From contig JBFGLM010000017.1 in assembly GCA_041576165.1 (NCBI GenBank), positions 24,807 to 88,806 of the forward strand: a stretch of 64,000 nucleotides of DNA, in the 5' to 3' direction. Position numbers and translations under genes: made by a program. A model generated the notes under the pieces. The model ran no database searches, was not told where the DNA came from, and saw only the letters and a list, made by a program, of their open reading frames with translations. Origin of the DNA: Acidimicrobiia bacterium (GTDB lineage: Bacteria > Actinomycetota > Acidimicrobiia > Spongiisociales > Spongiisociaceae). Shown here piece after piece: positions 46,517 to 64,000 of this stretch. Each line of letters begins with the position of its first letter. Positions within the stretch are counted from its first letter, which is position 1.

Positions 46517-47215
46517 TCAGCTGTCGTCGACGCTGGACGCAAGCTGGGCGGCAGAACGCCGCGCTCGTGCCGCCAGGTCCACCCACAGGCGGGCACTGCC
46601 CGGATGCCGGTCGGCCAGGTCCTCCCACAACGCGGCTGCCGCCGCATACGGTTCTGGGCCGACCTGGGTCGTGTGGTCTTCGAACAGCCACCCGCCCGCC
46701 AGGTCGTGCACCGCCAACCCGTCGGGTATCGCCCCGATGCTGTCGTGACCCGGGGGCACCAACCCCTCGCTCTCGGTGAGAACTGGAGCCACCCGATGGA
46801 GGTCGCCCAGGGCCAGCAGCGCCTCGGTAGCCGCCATGGCCTCTGCCGCCCACTCAGAATCAGTGGACCCGACCGTCACCAGCCACGGCACCGCCCAATG
46901 CAGGATCCGATCGCCCAGCAGAAAACGGCGGTCGGATAGTGCCTGGGTGGCCGTCACCGGATCGTCGGCGTCCCACGCGTCCGCCTCGGCGCCGGCCAGC
47001 GCCGCGCCGAATGCCAGCAAACTGGAGAGCGAATGATCTGCGAAGGCGTGGCTCCACGATGCGGCGCGGCGAGTCAAATCGCCGGCCGGGTCGTGCCCGG
47101 TGACGGCCAACTCACTGGGCTGTGGACCATCCCAGCCGGACGCCAGCAGATCTACCAGCGACAGGACGAACGACCACCGGTCCAGCTCAGACCGGGCCGT
47201 GGCACCTGCGTTCAT
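46517..47215 (-). CDS. Hypothetical protein with weak TorD/DmsD chaperone-like segment
   Basis: ADH.L...L.F.A.L...RRFL....LHWAVPWL; leaderless ATG behind TAACCT. Confidence 0.6.
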   Translation of the reverse strand: MNAGATARSELDRWSFVLSLVDLLASGWDGPQPSELAVTGHDPAGDLTRRAASWSHAFADHSLSSLLAFGAALAGAEADAWDADDPVTATQALSDRRFLLGDRILHWAVPWLVTVGSTDSEWAAEAMAATEALLALGDLHRVAPVLTESEGLVPPGHDSIGAIPDGLAVHDLAGGWLFEDHTTQVGPEPYAAAAALWEDLADRHPGSARLWVDLAARARRSAAQLASSVDDS

Positions 47216-47304
47216 GGCCGGAGGTTACGCGCTACACCCGACACGCGCCGGGGGGCGAACGACAGCCATGACGAAGCTGGGATCGAGACGTAGCCGGGGT
47301 GTGC

Positions 47305-47480
47305 GGCAGACAGGGTGCGCCGAAGCGCACCCTGTTGCCTTCCCACCGCTCCGCTCCGCAGGTGGGAAATCTCGAAGCCATCGAGCTGAAGCACCCTGGC
47401 GATGTGTAGCTCCAGCCCAACGGATCCGCTCCGCTTTGTACCCACTTGGAGTGATTCCGCCATCACTCAAGGTGAGCACT
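47305..47480 (-). ncRNA. Candidate structured small RNA of unknown family
   Basis: Five consecutive hairpins; G-U pairs in P1 and P2 that would be mismatches on the plus strand; terminal C(UUCG)G stem; CACAAT -10 at 47492-47487. Confidence 0.65.
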
Positions 47481-47584
47481 GTGGCCATTGTGCGGAAGTC
47501 ACCGGAGGATTCCAGAAGCATCCATAATCCACACGGGGTGACTAGTCAGCGACGGAGAGCGGGAACCAGCGATCCGGCGACACA

Positions 47585-47617
47585 GCCAGCCCGAGCATTG
47601 CCAGCCCGAGCATTGCC
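47585..47617. repeat. 15-bp tandem duplication
   Basis: GCCAGCCCGAGCATT twice, followed by GCC. Confidence 0.85.
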
Positions 47618-47704
47618 GGAACGGCGTGTAACGATGGGCTCCCGCACAAAGCCTCACAACGTCCACCAGCCTACCCTGGTCTGTGCCGCCGGGCCATGAT
47701 CGCG

Positions 47705-49513
47705 TCAGGTTTCTATACCCACGAGCGGTTCCGCTCGCTCCAGCCGCTGGCCCCCGCCGAGCACCGGCGCGAAGAGGTCCCCGTATCGGGCCAGGCGGTC
47801 CCAGATGGTCTCGATTGTGTATTGCTCCGGCGTCACCGATCCGATCTCGTCCCATAGGATCGGGGTCGAGACGGTTGCGGTGGGGGTCGGTCGAACCGAG
47901 TACACCGAGGCAATGGTTTTGCCGGCTACGTTCTGATTGTGATCGATGAAGACCTTGCCCTTGCGCTTCGGTATGTCCCACTCCATCGTGGTCTCATCCG
48001 GGTTGGCTGCGACCAGCAACCGACCCATCGCTTCGACGAATCCCCGTACTCGCGCATACGAGTAGATCGGATCGAGCGGCACGTAGACATGGAGGCCGGT
48101 GGCGCCCGAGGTCTTCACATAGCCGGTCAGACCAACCTGGTCGAGTGCCACCCGCAACAGCTGGGCGACTGCACATACCTGGTCCCAGGTAGCTCCCTCC
48201 GCCGGGTCGAGGTCGAAGATCGCGAAATCGGGGTGCTCCAACGTCGATATGCGGGACAGCCACGGGTGGATCTCGATGCAACCCATTGACGCCAGCCACA
48301 TGAGGGATTCGGCGTCGCGGGCGGTGACGAAATCAATCGCGTCGCCGCGGTGCACGGAGTGGATCGAGGCCAGCGGCATCCAGTCCGGCTGGTGCCCGGG
48401 CGCCTGTTTTTCATAGAAGAATCCGCCTGCGGCGCCGTCGGGAAATCGGGCCATGACGATCGCCCGGTCCTCGAGGTGGGGTATCAATACGGACGCCACC
48501 GACGCGTAGTACTGGATGAGATCTCCCTTGGTGTATCCAGTCTCGGGAAAGAATGTCTTGTCGATGTTCGACAGGCGGAGCTTGCGGACGAAGCCGAGCG
48601 GAACGAAGCGTTCGCCGTCGGCCGTGACGGCGATCCGGTCGGGAAACTCCACCCCGCCGGACGCCAGCAGCCGTCCCTCCCGGGCGGGCGGTTCGAGATC
48701 ATTGAGCGTGGCGGCGATCTCGTCTTGGATGGCGTCGTGGCTGGACGCCTCCCGGGCCTCGGAGATGATGGTCATGCGGAGTCCGGCAGCCCGGGCGGCT
48801 GCAACCAGCGGGCCCACGCGGAGCGAACCCTCTCCGTATTTGACGTGGCGGATCTCGCCGCTGTCCCCGAAAGCGTTGTCAGTGAACTGGGTATGGAGCG
48901 GGTCCAGCATCCAGCCGGGGAACTCGGAGCGGAGGAACTCGATTACCGCCGCGAACGCTTCCTGGCTGGTCAGGCCCCCGTTGGACATGGCGTGCACGTG
49001 CGCCCAGTCCACTACGGGGCGGACGAACGGGTACTCGGACGCCAACAATGCGATGTCGCCCAGGCTGCCGAACGCCGACGTCTTGCCGGCTGTCTCCAAG
49101 CCCAGCCCCACGCCCAAATGGCCGATCTTCGATCCGATCCAGTCGAGGTGGCGCCGGATCCGATCGAGCAGTTCGGCCGGCTCTTCATCGTGGGTGCTGC
49201 CCAGGTGGGCGACGATCACCCGGGCACCCAGCTCGGCCCCGAGTTTTACGCTGTGCTCGAGGGCGGCCCGACACTGCCTGGCCCGATCCTCTTCCTGGAC
49301 CGTGAGCACCGCGAAATAGGGCGCATGTAACGAGAGTTGAACATGCCGGGCGGCGGCCGCTTCACCAAAAACGGCGCACCGGCGCTCCTTCCACGGGAAA
49401 TCCTTTACGAACGCCAACTCGTAGGCCTGATGCCCGCGCGCCAGCAATCCGTCGAGGAAGCCCTCGTCGGAGACGCCATCTGGCGGCAGGCCCGAGATCC
49501 CGAATCGGATCAT
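47705..49513 (-). CDS. Fusion of endonuclease IV-like TIM barrel and LigD-type primase-polymerase (PolDom)
   Basis: N-terminal: HAPY, AHLG, LETAGK, DWAH, LH.QF.D, EIRH, ISE. C-terminal: LSNIDK.FFP, TKGDLI.YY, RFPDG, FDLDP, KTSG..GLH, FIDHNQN, YSVR. Single uninterrupted ORF. Confidence 0.9.
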   Translation of the reverse strand: MIRFGISGLPPDGVSDEGFLDGLLARGHQAYELAFVKDFPWKERRCAVFGEAAAARHVQLSLHAPYFAVLTVQEEDRARQCRAALEHSVKLGAELGARVIVAHLGSTHDEEPAELLDRIRRHLDWIGSKIGHLGVGLGLETAGKTSAFGSLGDIALLASEYPFVRPVVDWAHVHAMSNGGLTSQEAFAAVIEFLRSEFPGWMLDPLHTQFTDNAFGDSGEIRHVKYGEGSLRVGPLVAAARAAGLRMTIISEAREASSHDAIQDEIAATLNDLEPPAREGRLLASGGVEFPDRIAVTADGERFVPLGFVRKLRLSNIDKTFFPETGYTKGDLIQYYASVASVLIPHLEDRAIVMARFPDGAAGGFFYEKQAPGHQPDWMPLASIHSVHRGDAIDFVTARDAESLMWLASMGCIEIHPWLSRISTLEHPDFAIFDLDPAEGATWDQVCAVAQLLRVALDQVGLTGYVKTSGATGLHVYVPLDPIYSYARVRGFVEAMGRLLVAANPDETTMEWDIPKRKGKVFIDHNQNVAGKTIASVYSVRPTPTATVSTPILWDEIGSVTPEQYTIETIWDRLARYGDLFAPVLGGGQRLERAEPLVGIET

Positions 49514-49590
49514 GGAATGGAGGTTATCTGTCCCGGACGGCTGGTCGATACCCGGTCCCATCGGGTCGGGATCGGTGCTACCTTCCCGTC

Positions 49591-49663
49591 GGGCCTGTAG
49601 CTCAATCGGTAGAGCAGCGGACTTTTAATCCGAAGGTCGTGGGTTCGATTCCCACCGGGCCCA
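49591..49663 (+). tRNA. tRNA-Lys (anticodon TTT)
   Basis: GGGCCTG/CGGGCCC acceptor stem, GCTC/GAGC D arm, CTTTTAA loop, GTGGG-TTCGATT-CCCAC T arm; CCA not encoded. Confidence 0.96.
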
Positions 49664-55516: not shown

Positions 55517-58500
55517 TTAAGGATCGGATTCGGGGGGGTCCGCTTGAGCAGTTATGTGAGGTGGCATGTGACCGGCCACGTGAGTGGGGCGACCGGCCGA
55601 TCCGTCCGACCGAACGTCCACCACAACCCCATTAGGCGCGAGCGGGACTGTGGGAACCCCGCGCCCCAGCCGCACGAGCAGGGCGCCGACCATGATCAGC
55701 GCCAATGCCAGCGCCAGTTGCATGTCCGAGTCGATGCCGGTGCGGGGCACGGTCGTGCCGCTGCCGCCGCCACCCGAGGTGTCCTGCCCCAGGATGGAGA
55801 TCGTGATCTGCGCCTCATCGCACAGTCCGCCGCTGTCGCAGATCTCGACCGTCACAACATGGAAGCCGGGCACGTCCGGAACGCCGATCCACTGCCCGTC
55901 GGCTCCGAGCGAGACCCCGGGAGGCAACGAACCGCCGGTAACCCGGATCGTCACTTCACCACCTTCGGGATCATCGAAGCTCAAGGGCGGCAACGCCGTC
56001 CCGACCACCTCCACGATGGTCATCGGGTCGACGCTCGGCGGGTCGTTGACCTCGGCCACCGTCACCGTGACCATCGCCGATGTGCACAGGCCGCCGGCCG
56101 CGGTCCCGCCCGTTCCGGGGATCTCACAAATGGTGTAGGTGAACGTGTCCACGCCGGAGAAGTCCGCATCGGGCGTGTAGATGACCGTGTCGCCGTCCGT
56201 GGTCACGGAGCCGTTGGCGGGGGTACTCACCGCCACGATCTCCAGTTCGTGGCCGTCCGGGTCGCTGTCGTTGGCAATGACGTCGATTTCGACGGCGGTG
56301 TCTTCCAGAGTCTCAGCAGGGTCGGCAGCCGCCACCGGAGCGTGGTTGCCACCCACCGCGAAGTCGACATCCAGGTCTGTCTCGTCGGGCGCCAGGCTGA
56401 TCGAGATCGGGTCGGCGCCGCCCATCCCGACCGGCAGGCTATCCGGGTCGACCTCTACCAGGTAGAGGCCCGGCGCCACGCTCGCGAAGCTGTAGCTTCC
56501 GTCCGCAGCGGTGGTGGTGACGCGCTGGATGTCGTCGGCTGTTCCAACGATTCCGTCGTCGCCCACGAAGGTGGCGGTCACGGTGACGCCGCCGAGGCCG
56601 GGTTCGTCCGAGTCATTGACACCGTCGAGATCTACATCCTCGAAGACAAGGTCGCCAACCGTGGCCGTGCCCGTGAACGGCAGGGCATCTGTGGCAACTG
56701 TGCCTCCGGTGGCAACGGTCAAGGTGATCGGCCCCGGTGGAGTGGTCCCGGGCGGAGCGTCGGACGGATCGATCGAGACTTCGTACGTTCCGGCCGGGAG
56801 GTCCTCGACCGTGAAAGCGCCGGTGGCGTCTGTGACGGTCGTGAAGACAAGGTCGTCACCCCCGCCGACAAGGCCATCGGGGCCCAGCCAGGTCAGCGCA
56901 ACCGTCACCCCGGCCGGGGTTGGTTCGTTGGGATCCACGGCCAGGTCGACGTCCACATCAACAAAGACCGAACCTGCAACGGCGGCGGACCCGATGAAGC
57001 CGAAGTCGACCGCCGTCCGGTTCTCTCCCGATCCCAGAGCCACGGCCGCCAGCCCGTCGGCCGGCCCCGAGGCGTCGAACGTCGCCTGGTTGAACCCGCC
57101 TGCGGCCGCAGTCGTGTCCACGCTGACCCGGTACGCGCCGGCCGCCAGGCTTGTGTACGAATACCCGCCGGAGGCATCGGTGACGCCGGCGAAGCTTGCG
57201 TCGTCGCCGGTGCCGAACAACCCGTCGGCTCCCGCCCACAGCAACAGCACGCCCGCCCCGGCGATCGGAGGATCAGCCGGATCGAGCGCCCCGCCCCCGC
57301 CGAGATCGTGGACGACGGTGCCGCTGATCGAGCCCGAGCCGGCCAGCCCCACATCGCTCAGGGTGTCGGCCTCGCCGGACTGGAGCGTCACAGCCGCCGG
57401 GTTGTTGCCGGTGGTCACGATCGTGCCGGCCGGCTCGATCACGTTCACCTCGAACGTGCCGGGCGGCAGCCCGGGCAGCACGTACGTGCCATCGGCCGCC
57501 GTGACCACAGCAAAGGTCTGATCGTCGGCGGTCCCGATGACTCCGTCCGGACCGGCCCACGTGATGTCCACGGCGACCGCCGGGGCCGGCGACTCGCCTG
57601 GATCGACAACACCGTCGCCGTCCAGGTCGTAGAAGACCGAGCCGCGGATCTCGGTGGCGGCGAACAGTCCGGCGTCCACATCCGTTCGGGCCTCACCCAC
57701 CGCCAGGGGAATGATGGTCGTCGCGCCGATGGTCGGATCGACGTCGGAGTCGATGGAGTCGTCGGCCCCGATGTCCTGTGCGGTGAACTCCAGGGTGGCG
57801 GGCGAGGTGACGATCACAACGTAGTCACCGGCGGGGAGGTCCGAGAAGAGGTAGGTGCCACCCGGACCGGTCAGCTGGGCGGCCACCAGCGTCTCGGCAA
57901 CGCCGTCGCCGGTCGTGTCCTCATACAGCGCGACCGACACGCTCTGCAGTCCGGGCTCGCCGCCCTCCCGGCCGTCGCCGTTGAGGTCCTCCCACACGGT
58001 GCCGGCAATCGACGCGGCCGGCTCATAGCCGACGTCGGAGGCAGCCACCGTGGCGCCGTCGGGGACGGAGACAGGCTGGGGATCGTTGGCGGTCGAGAGC
58101 AAATGATCGGACGGGAAGCCGGACGACGTTTCATCGACGTCGACCGTGTAGTCACCGACGGGCAGAATCACCGCAATCGTGCCGTCGGCGGCGGTGACTG
58201 ATGTAGCAACAACGGTGCCGACCGCGTCGGTGATGATGACCGTGACGCCGCCCATCGGCGTGTCGCCGCCGGCGGGGTTGAATACGCCGTCCCCGTTGGC
58301 GTCGACGAAGACGAAACCAGCCAGCGTGCCGGAGGGCACCACCGTCACATCGGCGGTGTCGGAAGCATTGACCGGATTCCCGAGCGGATCGAGGGCGGCA
58401 ACCGACGCCGCGTTGGTGAAGTCGGCCGTCACGGGGCCGACGATGCAGGTCACGATCACCGGGGCCGCTCCGGCCGCCAGTGCGCCGATCACCGTGTCGC

Positions 58501-61500
58501 AGCCGGGCGCCAGCGGATCCGAGACGGTGACCCCGGTCAAGTCCGTATCACCGTTGTTGGTGACGACGATCGTGAATGAGGCAGTTCCGCCATCCGGGAC
58601 GGTCTGAGCATCCGGCGTCTTCTGGATGTCGACGGACGGGGCCAATACGGTGACGTCGGCGATATCGGTGTCGGTGACGGTCACGCCCGACCCCGGGTCG
58701 GTTCCGCTGGCGTCAACCGAGTTCGTGAAGTCGGTCGCCACCGCAACTTCGGTGCAGGTGTAGGCGGTGGAGTTGCCGGGCGTGAGCGAACCCAGCGCGG
58801 CGTCGCAGGCCGGCACAGCCGGGTCCGTCACGGTGACGTTGTCGAGGTCGGTGTCGCCGACGTTGGTCACGGTGATCGTGAAGGTGGCGTCGCCTCCCAC
58901 GACGACCGACTGCAGGTCGGGCGTCTTTCTGACGAGAATTGCCGGAGCTACCACGTCGACGTTGGCTATATCGGCATCGCTCACGGTGGCGCCGATTGGA
59001 TCGGTCGCGGACACGTCGACCGTGTTGGTGAAGTCGGCGGTCACGCCGGCAGCCGTGCAATTGTAGGAGACCAACGCCCCCGACCCGAGCGGCCCGATCA
59101 CGGCGTCACAGGCCGGAACGGCGGCGTCGGTGACGGTGACGCCGGTGAGGGCTGTGGCGCCCGAGTTGGTGACGGTGATGGTGAAGGTCACGTCCGATCC
59201 GTAGGGCACGATCTGGAGGTCGGGTGTCTTCTGGACCTCGACTGCAGGGACCAGCACGGTGACGGTCGCAGAATCCGAGGAGCTCACTGGCGACCCGATG
59301 ACGGCGTCGGTTCCGGTCACGCTGGCCGTGTTGGTGAACCCGGTCGTGACGCCCGAGACCGAGCAGTTGTATTCGACCGTTCCGCCGACCGGCACGCTGC
59401 CGATGGCGCTGTCGCAGGCCGGGACCGTCGGATCCGATACGACCAGGTCGGCCAGCGCCACGTCCCCGGTGTTGGTCACCCGCACGGTGAACTCGGCCGT
59501 CCCGCCGGCCACGATGGTCTGAGCGTCCGGCGTCTTGGAGATCGCCACCGCCGGGCTGATGACATCTACTGCACCATCGTCGGCGTCTGAGACGACGTTT
59601 CCGAAGCTGTCCGTGCCGCTGACTGTGGCGGTATTGACGAAGTCGGCTGCGACCCCCGCCGCCGCGCAGCCATAGGACACCGTCTCGTCGATCGCCAGCG
59701 GCCCCAGCACCTGGTCGCAGCCGGGCGCGAGCGGATCGTTCACGGTGGCGGCGGTGATCGCTTCGGATCCGCTGTTGGTCACCGTGATGGTGAAGGCGGC
59801 GGTGCCGCTGGACAGAATGGTCTGCGTGTCCGGGGTCTTCTGGATCTCGATGCCGGGATTCACCACCACCACGTCGGCTGAGTCGGAGTCGCCCAGCACG
59901 TTGCCAAGCGGGTCGGTGGCCGACACCGAGGCGATGTTCGTCAGGTCGGCCAGGACGTTGTTGAGCGTGCAGTCGTAAGAGCTGGAGGCGCCGGCGGCCA
60001 CCGTCCCGAGGTTGGCGTCACAGGCCGGCACCGCCGGATCGCTGACGGTTACGTTGTCGAGAGGCACGTCACCACGGTTGGTGACGGCGATGCTGAATGT
60101 GACCGAACCGCCGCTCGCCACGGTTGTCAGGTCGGGAGCTTTGCTGATCTCGATCACCGGCGAGATGATGTCTACATCGGCCGTGTCGGAATCCGACACG
60201 GGCGCACCGAGGGGGTCGGTCGCGGTCACGTCGGCCGTATTCGTGAAGTCAGCCGTGACGTTGGTTGCGGTGCAGGTATACGACACCGTCGCACCCGAGG
60301 CCAGGGTCCCAAGGGCCGCGTCGCACGTTGGGACCGAGCCGTCGCTGACCGTGACTCCGTCGAGCGAGGTCGCCCCCGAGTTCGTCACGGTGATCGTGAA
60401 CGTCACGTCCGACCCGTACGGTACGACCTGGAGGTCGGGTGTCTTCTGGACCTCGACTGCGGGCACCAGCACCACCACGTCGGCGGTGTCGGAGGCGGTC
60501 ACAGTCGCGCCCAGGACGTCGTCGATGCCGGTCACGATGGCCGTGTTGGTGAAGTCGGCGGTTACCGCGGCGAGTGAGCAGGAAACCGTGGCCGATGCGC
60601 CCACCGCCAGGGCGCCGATGACGGTGTCGCAGCCGGGCACCGCCGGATCGGTCACTGCCACCCCGCTGAGATCGACATCGCCGGTGTTCGTGACCGTCAC
60701 GTCAAAGTCAGCCGTTCCCCCAGAGATGATCGTTTGGGTGTCAGGGGTCTTGGCGATCGACACCGCGGGTGCGATAACGTCGACGTCGCCGGTGTCGGCG
60801 TGGGTATGGGTGCCGCCAATCGGGTCGCTGGCGGACACGGTGGCGGTATTGGTGAAGTCTGATGTCACCCCGCCAACCGAGCAGGCATAGGAGATCGACC
60901 CGCCGGCCGCAATCGTGCCGAGGTTGGCGTCGCACCCGGGGGCGGCGGGGTCGGTGACCGTGACGTTGTCGAGGGTCGTGGCACCGGCGTTGGTGACCGT
61001 GATCGTGAAGCTGGCGGTGCCGCCCGACATGACCGTCTGCAGATCCGGCGTCTTCTGGACGTCGACGGCCGGGACGAGCACGTTGACGGTGGCAGTGTCC
61101 GAGGCGCTCCAGGTGCCGCCGATCGGGTCGTCGGCCGTGACGTCGGCCTGGTTGGTGAAGTCGGCGGTGACTCCCGCCACCGAACATGAGATGGCCTGGG
61201 ACTCCCCGGCGGCAAGGAAAGCGAAGCTGGTTTCACAACCGGGAGCGAGCGGGTCGGCGATCACCACGTTGCTCAGATCGACGTCGCCCGGGTTCGTCAC
61301 CGTGATGGTGAAGCTGGCGGTTCCACCCTGGACGACGCTCTGGGTCGCCGGGGTTTTGCTGACGGTCAGTTGCGGGTTGATCACATCGACTGAGGCGCTG
61401 TCGCTGTCGGTCACAGTCTGAAGGGGATGTTCACCTTGGGCCGAAGCGGTGTTCGTGAAGTCGGCACCCACCGAAGTGACGGTGCAGGTGTAGGCAGTGG

Positions 61501-64000
61501 TGGCGCCCGCAGCCAGCGCTCCCAGCGCCCGATCGCAGGCCGGCACAGCCGGGTCGGTCACGGTCACGTTGTTGAGGGCGACGTCGCCGCTGTTGTCGAC
61601 GGTGATCGTGAAGGTGGCGTCGCCGCCGGCCAGGATCTGCTGCGTGACCGGATCCTTGGTGATGGTGATGGCCGGATGCGCCACGACGACGTTGGCCGAG
61701 TCGCTCGCCGAGACCGACCCGCCCGGATGGTTGGCGGCGACGTCGGCAGTATTCGTGAAGCTGGCGGTCACCGCGCTCAGCGTGCAGGCGTAGGACGTGC
61801 TGGCGCCGATGGCCAGCGGGCCAATGGCGCGGTCGCAGTTGGGTGCCAGCGGGTCGCTGACCGCCACTCCGGTCAGGTCATAATCACCCGTGTTGGTGAC
61901 CGTGATCGTGAAGCCGGCGACACCGCCCTCCAAGATCTCTTGGTTGGCCGGGTCCTTGGTGAGGCTGATCGAGGGAACGAGAACGTTCACCACCGCCGAG
62001 TCGTTGTCGGTCAGCGATGTGCCGATAGCGTCGGTGGCGGTGACAGACGCGACGTTGGTGAACCCTGCGGTGACCCCGGTGGCGGAACACGAATAGCTGG
62101 TCGAGGCACCTGCCGCCAGCGCCCCGATCACCAGATCACAGGCCGCAACCGCCGGATCGCTGACGGTGACGGCGCTCAAGTCCATGTCACCGGGGTTGGT
62201 GACGGTGATGGTGAAGGTGGCGTCGGTGCCGGTCAGAATGTCCTGGGTGGCCGGGTCCATGGTGATCTGCACCGATCCCGGCCGCGCGAAGCCGAAATCA
62301 ACGCCGGGGACCGGTGCACCGGCGACCGTCGCCGGAAGCGGGTTGGCGGTGGTGGCCACCATGCCGGCCGGAAGGGTTGCCTCATCCACCCGCACGGTGT
62401 AGCTCCCGTCGGGGACAGGATTGAAGAGGTAGGATCCGCCGCCGGCCGTGGTCGTCGTCTGCACGACAGATCCGCCGCCGTCGAGCAGCTCGACCGTGAC
62501 TCCGCCGAGCCCGGCCTCGCCGGCTTCCTGAGCGCCACTGGCGTCACGGTCGTCCCACACCACCCCGCTGATCGGGTAGGTCGGCACCACGGTGTAGCCG
62601 AAATCGGCGCTGTTGTAGTCCTCCCCGGAGGCGAGCGTCACATCGAGCGGCTCGGTCCCCACCGCCAGCGTGGCTCCGGTCGGCAGCGTCGCCTCATCCA
62701 CGTCCACCCGGTAATCCCCCGGCGCCAAACCCGTGAAGTCGAACGAGCCATCGGCGGCGGTCACCTGGGTAGCCACCGTCACGTCGTCGCCGGTCCCCAA
62801 CAGCCCATCCGGACCGGGACCGATCAGGTTCACCGTCACGCCGCTCATACCCTCACCCGGGTCCGGGGTACCGCTGCCGTCGAGATCCTCGAAAACCAGG
62901 TCCCCTATCGAGGCGGGCACGATGTAACCGAAGTCGGCGTCGTTGTAATCCTGGCCGGAGCCGAGCGTCACATCGAGCGGCTCGGTCCCCACCGACAGCA
63001 CCGAACCGGCCGGCAAGCTGGTTTCGTCCACGTCCACCCGGTAATCCCCCGGCGCCAAACCGGTGAAGTCGAACGAGCCATCGGCGGCGGTCACCTGGGT
63101 AGCCACCGTCACGTCGTCGCCGGTCCCCAACAGCCCATCCGGACCGGGACCGATCAGGTTCACCGTCACGCCAGCCAGGCCTTCACCGGGATCGGCGAGA
63201 CCGTCCCCGTCGGCGTCCTCGAACACCGAATCCCCGACGGAGCCTCCGATCACGTACCCGAAATCGGCCGTGTTGTAGTCATCCCCGGAGACAATGGTCA
63301 CGTCCAGCGGCTCGGTCCCGACCGCCAGGGTGGCGCCAGCGGGCAGCGTTGCCTCGTCCACATCTACCCGATAGTCGCCGGGAGCGAGGCCGGTGAAGTC
63401 GTAGAGGCCTACGGCCGTGGTCAGCTCGGTGGCAAGCACCACGTCGTCGCCCGTGCCCAACAATCCATCGGGACCGGAGCCGATCAGGTTCACGGTCACA
63501 CCGGCCAGCCCCTCGCCGGGTTCGGGCGTACCGCTGCCGTCGAGATCCTCGAAGACGAGGTCGCCGATCGATGCCGGGAGGTGGTAGCCAAAATCGGCGG
63601 TGTTGTTGTCGTCCCCGGATTGGAGGGTTAGGTCGAGGGGTTCGATCCCGACCGAGAGGACCATGCCGGCCGGCAGGGTGGTTTCGTCTACGTCCGCCCG
63701 GTAGTCACCCGGCGCCAACCCGGTGAAATCGTATGATCCGTCGGCGGCGGTCACCTGGGAGGCCAACGTGAGGTCGTCACCGGTCCCCAGCAGCCCATCG
63801 GGTCCCGGGCCGATCAGGTTGACCGTCACGCCGGCCAGGCCTTCACCCGGATCCGCCATACCATCGCCATCGACGTCCTCGAACACCAGATCGCCAATGG
63901 TGGCCGGCACGTAATAGCCGAAATCGGCCGTGTTGTAGTCATCCCCGGAGGCAACGGTGATGTCCAGCGGTTCGGTCCCCACCGCCAGCACCGAACCGGC
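55517..64000 (-). CDS. Giant repeat surface protein/adhesin (SdrD-B-like, DUF11/DUF7507-like and cadherin/Ig-like domains, sortase-type C-terminus); 5' end outside window
   Basis: More than 2820 codons open; GD.VF.D.DG.G repeats; 13 FTITVTN.G repeats; NHAPVA..D; VPRTG plus TM plus RLGR. Confidence 0.92.
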   Translation of the reverse strand, partial: AGSVLAVGTEPLDITVASGDDYNTADFGYYVPATIGDLVFEDVDGDGMADPGEGLAGVTVNLIGPGPDGLLGTGDDLTLASQVTAADGSYDFTGLAPGDYRADVDETTLPAGMVLSVGIEPLDLTLQSGDDNNTADFGYHLPASIGDLVFEDLDGSGTPEPGEGLAGVTVNLIGSGPDGLLGTGDDVVLATELTTAVGLYDFTGLAPGDYRVDVDEATLPAGATLAVGTEPLDVTIVSGDDYNTADFGYVIGGSVGDSVFEDADGDGLADPGEGLAGVTVNLIGPGPDGLLGTGDDVTVATQVTAADGSFDFTGLAPGDYRVDVDETSLPAGSVLSVGTEPLDVTLGSGQDYNDADFGYIVPASIGDLVFEDLDGSGTPDPGEGMSGVTVNLIGPGPDGLLGTGDDVTVATQVTAADGSFDFTGLAPGDYRVDVDEATLPTGATLAVGTEPLDVTLASGEDYNSADFGYTVVPTYPISGVVWDDRDASGAQEAGEAGLGGVTVELLDGGGSVVQTTTTAGGGSYLFNPVPDGSYTVRVDEATLPAGMVATTANPLPATVAGAPVPGVDFGFARPGSVQITMDPATQDILTGTDATFTITVTNPGDMDLSAVTVSDPAVAACDLVIGALAAGASTSYSCSATGVTAGFTNVASVTATDAIGTSLTDNDSAVVNVLVPSISLTKDPANQEILEGGVAGFTITVTNTGDYDLTGVAVSDPLAPNCDRAIGPLAIGASTSYACTLSAVTASFTNTADVAANHPGGSVSASDSANVVVAHPAITITKDPVTQQILAGGDATFTITVDNSGDVALNNVTVTDPAVPACDRALGALAAGATTAYTCTVTSVGADFTNTASAQGEHPLQTVTDSDSASVDVINPQLTVSKTPATQSVVQGGTASFTITVTNPGDVDLSNVVIADPLAPGCETSFAFLAAGESQAISCSVAGVTADFTNQADVTADDPIGGTWSASDTATVNVLVPAVDVQKTPDLQTVMSGGTASFTITVTNAGATTLDNVTVTDPAAPGCDANLGTIAAGGSISYACSVGGVTSDFTNTATVSASDPIGGTHTHADTGDVDVIAPAVSIAKTPDTQTIISGGTADFDVTVTNTGDVDLSGVAVTDPAVPGCDTVIGALAVGASATVSCSLAAVTADFTNTAIVTGIDDVLGATVTASDTADVVVLVPAVEVQKTPDLQVVPYGSDVTFTITVTNSGATSLDGVTVSDGSVPTCDAALGTLASGATVSYTCTATNVTADFTNTADVTATDPLGAPVSDSDTADVDIISPVIEISKAPDLTTVASGGSVTFSIAVTNRGDVPLDNVTVSDPAVPACDANLGTVAAGASSSYDCTLNNVLADLTNIASVSATDPLGNVLGDSDSADVVVVNPGIEIQKTPDTQTILSSGTAAFTITVTNSGSEAITAATVNDPLAPGCDQVLGPLAIDETVSYGCAAAGVAADFVNTATVSGTDSFGNVVSDADDGAVDVISPAVAISKTPDAQTIVAGGTAEFTVRVTNTGDVALADLVVSDPTVPACDSAIGSVPVGGTVEYNCSVSGVTTGFTNTASVTGTDAVIGSPVSSSDSATVTVLVPAVEVQKTPDLQIVPYGSDVTFTITVTNSGATALTGVTVTDAAVPACDAVIGPLGSGALVSYNCTAAGVTADFTNTVDVSATDPIGATVSDADIANVDVVAPAILVRKTPDLQSVVVGGDATFTITVTNVGDTDLDNVTVTDPAVPACDAALGSLTPGNSTAYTCTEVAVATDFTNSVDASGTDPGSGVTVTDTDIADVTVLAPSVDIQKTPDAQTVPDGGTASFTIVVTNNGDTDLTGVTVSDPLAPGCDTVIGALAAGAAPVIVTCIVGPVTADFTNAASVAALDPLGNPVNASDTADVTVVPSGTLAGFVFVDANGDGVFNPAGGDTPMGGVTVIITDAVGTVVATSVTAADGTIAVILPVGDYTVDVDETSSGFPSDHLLSTANDPQPVSVPDGATVAASDVGYEPAASIAGTVWEDLNGDGREGGEPGLQSVSVALYEDTTGDGVAETLVAAQLTGPGGTYLFSDLPAGDYVVIVTSPATLEFTAQDIGADDSIDSDVDPTIGATTIIPLAVGEARTDVDAGLFAATEIRGSVFYDLDGDGVVDPGESPAPAVAVDITWAGPDGVIGTADDQTFAVVTAADGTYVLPGLPPGTFEVNVIEPAGTIVTTGNNPAAVTLQSGEADTLSDVGLAGSGSISGTVVHDLGGGGALDPADPPIAGAGVLLLWAGADGLFGTGDDASFAGVTDASGGYSYTSLAAGAYRVSVDTTAAAGGFNQATFDASGPADGLAAVALGSGENRTAVDFGFIGSAAVAGSVFVDVDVDLAVDPNEPTPAGVTVALTWLGPDGLVGGGDDLVFTTVTDATGAFTVEDLPAGTYEVSIDPSDAPPGTTPPGPITLTVATGGTVATDALPFTGTATVGDLVFEDVDLDGVNDSDEPGLGGVTVTATFVGDDGIVGTADDIQRVTTTAADGSYSFASVAPGLYLVEVDPDSLPVGMGGADPISISLAPDETDLDVDFAVGGNHAPVAAADPAETLEDTAVEIDVIANDSDPDGHELEIVAVSTPANGSVTTDGDTVIYTPDADFSGVDTFTYTICEIPGTGGTAAGGLCTSAMVTVTVAEVNDPPSVDPMTIVEVVGTALPPLSFDDPEGGEVTIRVTGGSLPPGVSLGADGQWIGVPDVPGFHVVTVEICDSGGLCDEAQITISILGQDTSGGGGSGTTVPRTGIDSDMQLALALALIMVGALLVRLGRGVPTVPLAPNGVVVDVRSDGSAGRPTHVAGHMPPHITAQADPPESDP
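55541..55584. repeat. Four degenerate octamers at 12-bp period upstream of parA
   Basis: CGCTTGAG 55541, TATGTGAG 55553, CATGTGAC 55565, CACGTGAG 55577. Confidence 0.5.
58340..62280 (-). repeat. 13 diverged ~300-bp intragenic repeats
   Basis: Unit K(T/D)P..Q...G..A.FTITVTN.G...L..V.V.DP..P.C...C....VTADFTN. Confidence 0.88.
62590..64000 (-). repeat. 330-bp intragenic tandem repeats (four or more copies)
   Basis: ADFGY codons recur every 330 bp; 62701-62842 and 63031-63172 differ at one base. Confidence 0.9.

Follow-up and report, generated by a model that had tools for sequence, protein, structure and literature searches.

The window is a stretch of 64,000 nucleotides (nt) from the Acidimicrobiia bacterium assembly GCA_041576165.1 (contig JBFGLM010000017.1, positions 24,807 to 88,806 of the forward strand), and positions given without a contig name are counted within it. 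Its minus strand carries a run of conserved hairpins at 47305–47546 that appears to be an independent structured small-RNA (sRNA) gene, with a transcript that would measure ~190–245 nt. The element was found only in this genome (G000, genus g1) and in two metagenome-assembled genome (MAG) species, G005 and G010, of the sister genus g6, also Acidimicrobiia. A sequence-only reading had placed it at 47305–47492. The folded element does lie there, but conserved blocks run on in the 5′ direction to 47546, ~55 nt past the start noted earlier. The element is thus probably longer than first drawn and gains a further hairpin, P0. Read from 5′ to 3′, P0 and P1 come first, followed by a middle hairpin that varies, then P4, and last the terminal P5 (MFE, minimum free energy; bp, base pairs):

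47536–47546, minus strand: invariant 11-nt box ACTAGTCACCC (also written ACUAGUCACCC), with all 11 positions identical among the window, G005, and G010.
47497–47543, minus strand: P0 hairpin, AGUCACC paired with GGUGACU, apical AUGGAUGC; predicted fold, −17.1 kcal/mol.
47518–47523, minus strand: conserved GGAUGC, always 12 nt past the box (AUGGAUGC in the window, AAGGAUGC in G005, GAGGAUGC in G010).
47490–47500, minus strand: conserved block GACUUCCGCAC (GACUACCGCRC in g6), the P0 3′ arm plus linker in a covariance-model alignment.
47438–47479, minus strand: P1 hairpin, loop GGCGGA (ACUGGAGCC in g6) with GGA exposed in the loop; MFE and centroid structures, −20.0 kcal/mol.
47425–47437, minus strand: linker AAAGCGGAGCGGA with two GGA (in g6, GUGGA plus CUGGA or AGGGA).
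47373–47428, minus strand: variable middle domain, one 22-bp hairpin with five G-U pairs; −29.5 kcal/mol (opposite strand, −15.0).
47340–47368, minus strand: P4 hairpin, 8-bp stem UUCCCACC/GGUGGGAA, loop GCGGAGCGGAGC with two exposed GGA; from the folds and covariance model R1.
47305–47339, minus strand: P5 terminal hairpin, 15 bp and GC-rich, cap UUCG (C-UUCG-G; GCAA in g6); −30.4 kcal/mol.

The fold is far more stable than those of shuffled sequences. The minus strand of 47295–47495 (201 nt) has an MFE of −102.3 kcal/mol against −78.8 ± 5.4 for shuffled sequences (z −4.37; 0 of 200 shuffles as low), and the full-length form (247 nt) reaches −121.2 against −94.1 ± 5.0 (z about −5.4). The G005 homologue has a fold z of −7.07 and a full-length MFE of −103.2 against −75.0 ± 4.7. 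Three hairpins of the sequence-only reading, namely P1 (47479–47438, loop GGCGGA), P4 (with GCGGAGCGGAGC in its loop), and P5, recur in both the MFE and centroid structures. The two separate hairpins that it had drawn between P1 and P4, P2 and P3, do not: the MFE structure joins both into the middle hairpin, which at −29.5 kcal/mol is more stable than either of them alone (−11.8 and −3.0). This domain is unconserved, with 22 bp in the window and a short hairpin of 7–8 bp in g6, and a kissing contact once proposed between GCCA and UGGC loops finds no comparative support there.

The element is single-copy, with one match to itself in its own 5.1-Mb, 161-contig genome. A second match of 32 nt (88% identity) lies inside a coding sequence and looks like chance. 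A dispersed repeat of the repetitive extragenic palindromic (REP) or miniature inverted-repeat transposable element (MITE) type, which the earlier reading had named as a refuting outcome, is ruled out by the single copy. Indels of 1 nt and 2 nt fall within the conserved P4–P5 block between the window and g6, which rules out a shared reading frame and marks the block as noncoding. At gathering scores, the only Rfam match in the whole window is a tRNA at 49591–49663, so the element belongs to no family there. At E ≤ 10 over 47000–47800, the search returned only a generic, STnc320-like resemblance of the terminal hairpin (E 0.2). Neither search matched CsrB, CsrC, RsmX, RsmY, RsmZ, or their relatives.

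Homologues were sought with BLAST over 41 genomes including G000 and with the covariance model R1 (P4 plus P5) over 29 genomes of the family. R1 scores 96.3 and 96.3 bits in the two g6 genomes and 77.8 bits for the window copy, the model being dominated by g6. Over 151 genomes of the order, R1 gave only weak, terminator-like matches besides G000 (E 0.009–0.07). An exact pattern of the P4 loop plus 3′ arm hit three loci among genome contigs, the two g6 MAGs and a chance coding match in a Microbacterium MAG, and three loci among metagenome contigs, all one unrelated sequence. A looser pattern of the box plus GGATG matched 53 of 401 genomes of the order and was set aside as mostly chance, the reversed control also being common; the matches inspected are gene ends or unrelated leaders. 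The second such site in G000 (contig C57) is the leader of a protein gene rather than a paralogue.

The 5′ half has diverged further. A second model, R2 (P0 plus P1, built from g6), missed the window copy with default filters and genome-wide, and aligned it at full length only with the filters off on 241 nt, at 8.7 bits. This points to weak sequence homology in the 5′ half, and it makes R2 uninformative about G004, a related genome of genus g5. R1 finds no homologue in G004 either (best E 8; the assembly is 88% complete in 660 contigs). The syntenic sites there show no element upstream of rpmB, and the contig with ligD ends 55 nt past the stop codon; this stub holds short GC-rich tandem repeats. 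Soil and sediment metagenome contigs show diverged partial matches to P1 and to P4/P5 (47307–47474) with unrelated flanks. Contigs from four DNA runs hold identical copies plus short diverged partials that offer no usable covariation. More distant relatives of the RNA probably exist.

Collinear blocks shared by the window and g6 are the box, GGAUGC, GACUWCCGC, and CACUCC..GUG..ACA. Their retention can be set against the neutral background of the same lineages. Of 463 four-fold degenerate rpoB sites, G000 and G010 share 40.2%, where chance would give 32.4%; the RpoB proteins are 86% identical. With neutral sites this close to saturation, neutral DNA would not be expected to align, and conservation of the element indicates selection; the RNA appears to have been under purifying selection since the g1/g6 split. 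Together with the missing Rfam match, this upholds the earlier suggestion of a new structured RNA. Comparative evidence supports a new family, so far limited to the two sister genera, and the element is very probably a real sRNA gene.

Conservation is uneven along the molecule. The P4 stem and its 12-nt loop are invariant across both lineages. In P5, two pairs are changed on both sides relative to g6 with pairing kept. P1 is retained though its 5′ arm has diverged: of its 15 pairs, 9 are unchanged, 3 are double-changed and still paired, 1 is single-changed and still paired, and 2 are broken (counted by hand from the R2 alignment). P0 has a counterpart in g6 with UAGUC(A) predicted to pair with (U)GACUA; both arms are invariant, which leaves no covariation test there. 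MAFFT misaligned P0, P1, and the P4 5′ arm, and an alignment fitted to R1 shifts the window P4 register by one; the latter was left out of the pair counts, as it would overstate covariation.

Several features orient the molecule, and the functional transcript is predicted, with good confidence, to be the minus strand. The P5 loops read UUCG (window) and GCAA (g6) on that strand and CGAA and UUGC on the other; UUCG and GCAA are stable tetraloop classes, found here on the minus strand only. On the plus strand, P1 weakens from −20.0 to −14.3 kcal/mol and the middle hairpin by about half, and the window helices lose 6–15 kcal/mol as G-U pairs become A-C mismatches. The earlier argument from G-U pairs and the UUCG loop is supported. 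A strong hairpin also falls at the 3′ end in the minus orientation only.

The opposite possibility is that the plus strand is functional, its C-rich loops (GCUCCGCUCCGC, UCCGCC/GGCUCCAGU, and GCAUCC) mimicking an anti-Shine–Dalgarno sequence and pairing with ribosome-binding sites. Gram-positive sRNAs with C-rich loops include 6C and RsaE. The plus strand folds well (z −3.74), CUCC motifs would fall in loops, and whole-length MFE in g6 is lower on this strand (−112.1 versus −103.2 and −119.0 versus −109.0), a difference that may reflect G-rich single-stranded stretches. Against these stand the weaker helices and less stable loops, the missing 3′ terminal hairpin, a course that in the window runs head-on into ligD, and the absence of a 6C match in Rfam. 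A plus-strand RNA is very unlikely.

P5 is presumed to be the terminator of the sRNA gene. It has no U tract in the window and a partial one only in g6 (UUCGCUAUU), and a terminator consensus scan returned 0 sites. Terminators without a U tract are common in Actinobacteria. A promoter consensus scan likewise returned 0 sites. The CACAAT hexamer read earlier as a −10 element is present in the window; with no promoter site in the scan and no conservation in g6, that assignment is not supported. A sigma-28-like −10 (GCCGATGA/GCCGATAG) upstream of the g6 box was rejected: it lacks a TAAA −35, and the window has no counterpart. Treating the box itself as a −10 element showed no enrichment of −35-like hexamers across 32 instances.

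The box has a second aspect. It may be either the P0 5′ arm or a DNA-level operator or promoter element, for it is the core of the palindrome TGACTAGTCA, and the related ACTAGTCA occurs at 25 places in G000, mostly in low-GC stretches without codon periodicity. The palindromic motif (TGACTAGTCA or ACTAGTCAC(C)) forms a five-copy direct array with 16-nt spacing between divergent thioredoxin and aminotransferase genes, and further copies precede two prepilin-like genes and one TadE-like gene; elsewhere the neighbours are mixed. The sites listed are these:

47536–47546 of the window: the copy in the RNA box.
G000:C22:47588–47670: one further stretch.
G000:C8:57073, 57166, and 77342: three further sites.
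G000:C12, about 78514: one further site.

Judged from this recurrence, TGACTAGTCA is probably an operator for some regulator. If the box acts as a DNA operator, the transcript would start just downstream, and GGAUGC would then lie in a single-stranded 5′ stretch. A perfect 16-nt tandem duplication (GCAATGCTCGGGCTGG ×2) occupies ~47586–47617, between the box and the stop codon of ligD.

Taken further, the motif could mean that the whole region is a DNA-level regulatory region (an operator array or promoter) or a remnant whose folding is incidental. The five-copy array and the recurrence of the palindrome in intergenic DNA speak for this. It does not account for ~190 nt in which hairpins stay collinear, show compensatory changes, and carry stable tetraloops, or for z values of −4 to −7, which are unexpected for operator DNA, and the reading is barely credible.

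The surroundings of the element bear on whether it is an independent gene. It is flanked in the window by a LigD-type gene and a 232-aa (amino acid) open reading frame (ORF) with no Pfam match, and in g6 by a divergent M42 peptidase gene and rpmB. The flanking genes being different, the element moves as its own unit. One alternative is a cis element or processed untranslated region (UTR): the ligD 3′ UTR in the window, or the leader of rpmB (g6) or of the 232-aa ORF (window). The element does share its strand with ligD (stop codon at 47705) and with the downstream ORF, and in g6 rpmB follows it on the same strand after ~120 nt, with no promoter recognised. Yet the neighbours are wholly different between g1 and g6, the divergent upstream gene in g6 precludes a 3′ UTR, no such element lies upstream of rpmB in G000 or G004 or downstream of the G010 ligD, and the strong terminal hairpin sets the element apart from the gene that follows. 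A cis element is most unlikely on this evidence. The more specific idea of an rpmB (L28) leader was dropped, since the element lies upstream of rpmB in g6 only.

What the RNA would do is suggested by its GGA trinucleotides. The full-length forms hold 10 GGA in the window and 9 in G005, against 5.4 ± 1.7 and 5.2 ± 1.5 in dinucleotide shuffles, and 2 and 3 of 200 shuffles, respectively, attained the observed counts. Among 406,196 windows of the genome, ten GGA per 247 nt ranks in the top 1.55%. Exposed GGA, defined by a probability of being unpaired above 0.5, number four in each form; shuffles average 1.3 and 0.66, and four were reached in 6 of 200 and 1 of 200, respectively. The longer motif GCGGA occurs five times in the element against 0.35 expected from its genome frequency (Poisson P 3e-5). 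The sequence-only reading had counted all five as unpaired. Only the copy in the P1 loop and the two in the P4 loop clearly are (~1.0); the linker copies are unpaired at 0.55 and 0.25 in the short form and pair even more in the longer transcript. In g6, GCGGA occurs only in P4; GGA is more widely shared.

The P1 loop retains an exposed GGA and the linker retains a GGA, although the remainder of both segments has diverged between the lineages. In the P4 loop (12–14 nt), the probability of being unpaired is 0.96–1.0 in the short form of all three sequences. The P0 apical motif has the form A/G-N-GGAUGC, reading AUGGAUG, AAGGAUG, and GAGGAUG in the three sequences. A consensus for CsrA from in vitro selection (SELEX) is given as RUACARGGAUGU in a 2020 review (PMC7652899). 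P0 A/G-N-GGAUG resembles its ARGGAUG core, and among the loop motifs P0 alone fits the A-N-GGA/RUACARGGAUGU type.

A CsrA for such an RNA to bind is encoded in the same genome (PF02599, 89 bits, G000:C82:10255–10407), csrA being a gene that the earlier reading had proposed to look for. The gene follows flgK, flgL, and fliW, with an FlgN-like gene and a sigma factor gene adjacent, and the composition of its contig matches the rest of G000. The 80-aa product (encoded at G000:C82:10252–10494) aligns with Escherichia coli CsrA; it retains the SRR and VHRxEIY stretches and has a longer C terminus. CsrA occurs in 4 of the 29 family genomes (G000, G004, G005, and G010); the RNA occurs in 3 of those 4 and in 0 of the other 25.

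The flagellin leaders of G004 and G010 suggest what this CsrA would recognise. They share two hairpins, GAAGAC-AGGGAC-GUCUUC and ACAAC-AAGGAG-GUUGU, the second of which covers the Shine–Dalgarno sequence:

L078, G004:C78, upstream of 1895: flagellin leader with canonical ANGGAN hexaloops.
L082, G010:C156, upstream of 337: flagellin leader with canonical ANGGAN hexaloops.

The same two-hairpin arrangement is described for the Bacillus subtilis hag leader in another source (PMC13443453). Given these hairpins, CsrA of this clade probably binds canonical ANGGAN loops. The G000 assembly (96.5% complete) holds no major flagellin gene or leader; flgL is the sole match to Flagellin_N, and the assembly lacks the leader motif. 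The flagellin gene may simply be unassembled. In L082, ~70–250 nt upstream of the leader hairpins, there are GGA-rich tandem repeats of GGCGGAAGGCGGATCGCGGATC followed by ACGGATC ×3. An inverted complement (CATCCGCC...) lies ~130 nt upstream of these repeats, and a long hairpin could form.

The mechanism that fits best, offered tentatively and by analogy, is that the element encodes a CsrA-titrating sRNA. The RNA would expose at least four GGA: at the apex of P0 (A/G-N-GGAUG), in the P1 loop, in the linker after P1, and twice in the P4 loop. Several CsrA dimers could bind these sites and would thereby be withdrawn from messenger RNA (mRNA) targets such as the flagellin leader, an action analogous to that of RsmY, RsmZ, and CsrB without homology to them. 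The protein sponge suggested by the sequence-only reading is compatible with csrA in the genome, with an RNA found only in csrA-bearing genomes, with enriched and exposed GGA, and with the SELEX-like motif; the co-occurrence is one phylogenetic split, and the exposed GGA are few. Titration of CsrA and the main rival would both account for selection on the loops, but of the two only titration explains why GGA is retained in loops that have otherwise diverged.

That rival is a trans-acting base-pairing sRNA that works without CsrA, in which the P4 loop GCGGAGCGGAGC, perhaps with the P1 loop, seeds on C/U-rich, GCUCCGCUCCGC-like stretches of mRNA. The P4 loop and stem and most of P5 are invariant despite near-saturated neutral sites, a seed-like pattern that goes beyond what GGA alone would need. 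The loop is almost fully open in short-form folds, and an independent gene with a terminal hairpin is typical of many such sRNAs. Of the two explanations, base pairing is also the only one to account for invariance of twelve loop nucleotides plus stem. It predicts a set of targets, of which there is no sign: the genome holds 25 occurrences of the 10-mer GGAGCGGAGC or its complement, fewer than the 62 of the reversed control. It also leaves unexplained the retention of GGA in the P1 loop, the linker, and P0 amid changing sequence. A base-pairing sRNA seems unlikely when both sides are considered.

A third possibility is a structured RNA for another protein, or a scaffold, with GGA incidental to G-rich loops. 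The strong conserved fold and the missing Rfam match suit this idea, as do loop motifs such as GCGGAG that fit A-N-GGA poorly. It is hard to reconcile with GGA enrichment and exposure that are significant against shuffles in both lineages; no candidate partner was found, and the gene neighbourhoods are unconserved. Such an RNA is improbable.

Titration of CsrA nevertheless has a good deal to answer for, and the following points weigh against it. Each molecule exposes only ~4 GGA, and CsrB exposes far more. In the short 195-nt form, the 7 GGA do not significantly exceed the expectation of 3.5 (P 0.067). GCGGA(A/G) and CUGGA(G), the motifs of P1 and P4, have no A at position −2 of A-N-GGA, and the two GGA of P4 are only 5 nt apart. 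Long-form folds leave the P0 GGAUG partly paired (unpaired at 0.03–0.34), and in that of G005 the two P4 GGA drop to 0.21 and 0.40 unpaired. The invariant 12-nt loop and stems, as compared across the homologues, are more constrained than a sponge needs. Recurrence of the box as a probable DNA motif means that P0 may lie outside the RNA.

The comparative record adds to this list. The homologues represent only two independent lineages in which the P0 and P4 stems are invariant, and the 3 of 5 double-changed P1 pairs that stay paired are suggestive and statistically indistinguishable from chance. The lower whole-length MFE of the opposite strand in g6 counts here as well. The rpoB tree groups g1 with g6 (SH-aLRT, Shimodaira–Hasegawa-like approximate likelihood ratio test, 96), places g5 next to the pair, and puts every genus without CsrA in the other clade; the tree includes G003 and G008 on very long branches, probably from a wrong or fused ORF. 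Co-occurrence of the RNA with csrA is one phylogenetic split with little statistical weight, and G004 has CsrA with no RNA detected in its incomplete assembly. The literature is also unfavourable. No sRNA antagonist is known for a FliW-partnered CsrA, nor any species with both FliW and an sRNA acting on CsrA, according to the 2020 review (PMC7652899), and the abstracts of two other papers say the same for Campylobacter jejuni and B. subtilis (PMC4894983, PMC7829508). The review also reports that fliW is anti-correlated with BarA–UvrY (PMC7652899).

Comparison with known systems shows where the element would stand as a CsrA-titrating sRNA. Like RsmY, RsmZ, RsmX, CsrB, and CsrC of the Gammaproteobacteria, it is multi-hairpin and independent, carries GGA in loops and linkers, ends in a strong terminal hairpin, and belongs to a genome with csrA. 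Its size lies between RsmZ and CsrB/CsrC. In the gammaproteobacterial families, a GacA/UvrY response regulator drives transcription by way of an upstream activating sequence. Unlike them, it has no homology of sequence or structure to the group, exposes few GGA, presents loops of GCGGAG and CUGGAG instead of A-N-GGA hexaloops, and resides in an actinobacterium whose CsrA is encoded beside fliW. The flagellin leaders of B. subtilis (hag) and C. jejuni (flaA) offer GGA hairpins recognised by FliW-type CsrA, of which the clade's own leaders show two. These leaders are cis elements of mRNA with 6-nt ANGGAN loops, one of them over the Shine–Dalgarno sequence, whereas the element is noncoding, has larger loops, and lies away from flagellar genes. 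6C RNA and RsaE are likewise multi-hairpin Gram-positive sRNAs with short repeated loop motifs and would be relevant only if the plus strand is transcribed; the element's loops are G-rich (GGA/GGAG) on the favoured strand, and 6C gave no match.

Whatever its function, the element would add a new family of structured RNA to a bacterial class in which literature searches found no work on sRNAs. Its reach is limited to three MAG species, and its hosts are uncultured, flagellated, marine and sediment Acidimicrobiia. Whether FliW and sRNAs jointly act on CsrA in any species "remains to be determined" in the words of the 2020 review (PMC7652899), and a GGA-presenting sRNA in Acidimicrobiia that bear both FliW and CsrA is a concrete candidate for that question. 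A rather doubtful extension is that this is the first Csr/Rsm-like CsrA-titrating sRNA outside Proteobacteria, with CsrA under both FliW/flagellin partner switching and an RNA decoy. If so, the decoy itself may answer to the TGACTAGTCA operator, copies of which also precede pilin genes.

The neighbouring genes hold some further observations. The LigD-type gene (47705–49561, minus strand) encodes a 618-aa fusion of a xylose-isomerase-like TIM barrel (AP_endonuc_2) and a LigD primase-polymerase domain, and relatives of ~605 aa are present in G004, G005, and G010. The tRNA gene (49591–49663, plus strand; Rfam, 76.8 bits) lies at a distance of ~2 kb. Near the end of the window starts a very long open frame of 2824 aa (55517–63991, minus strand).

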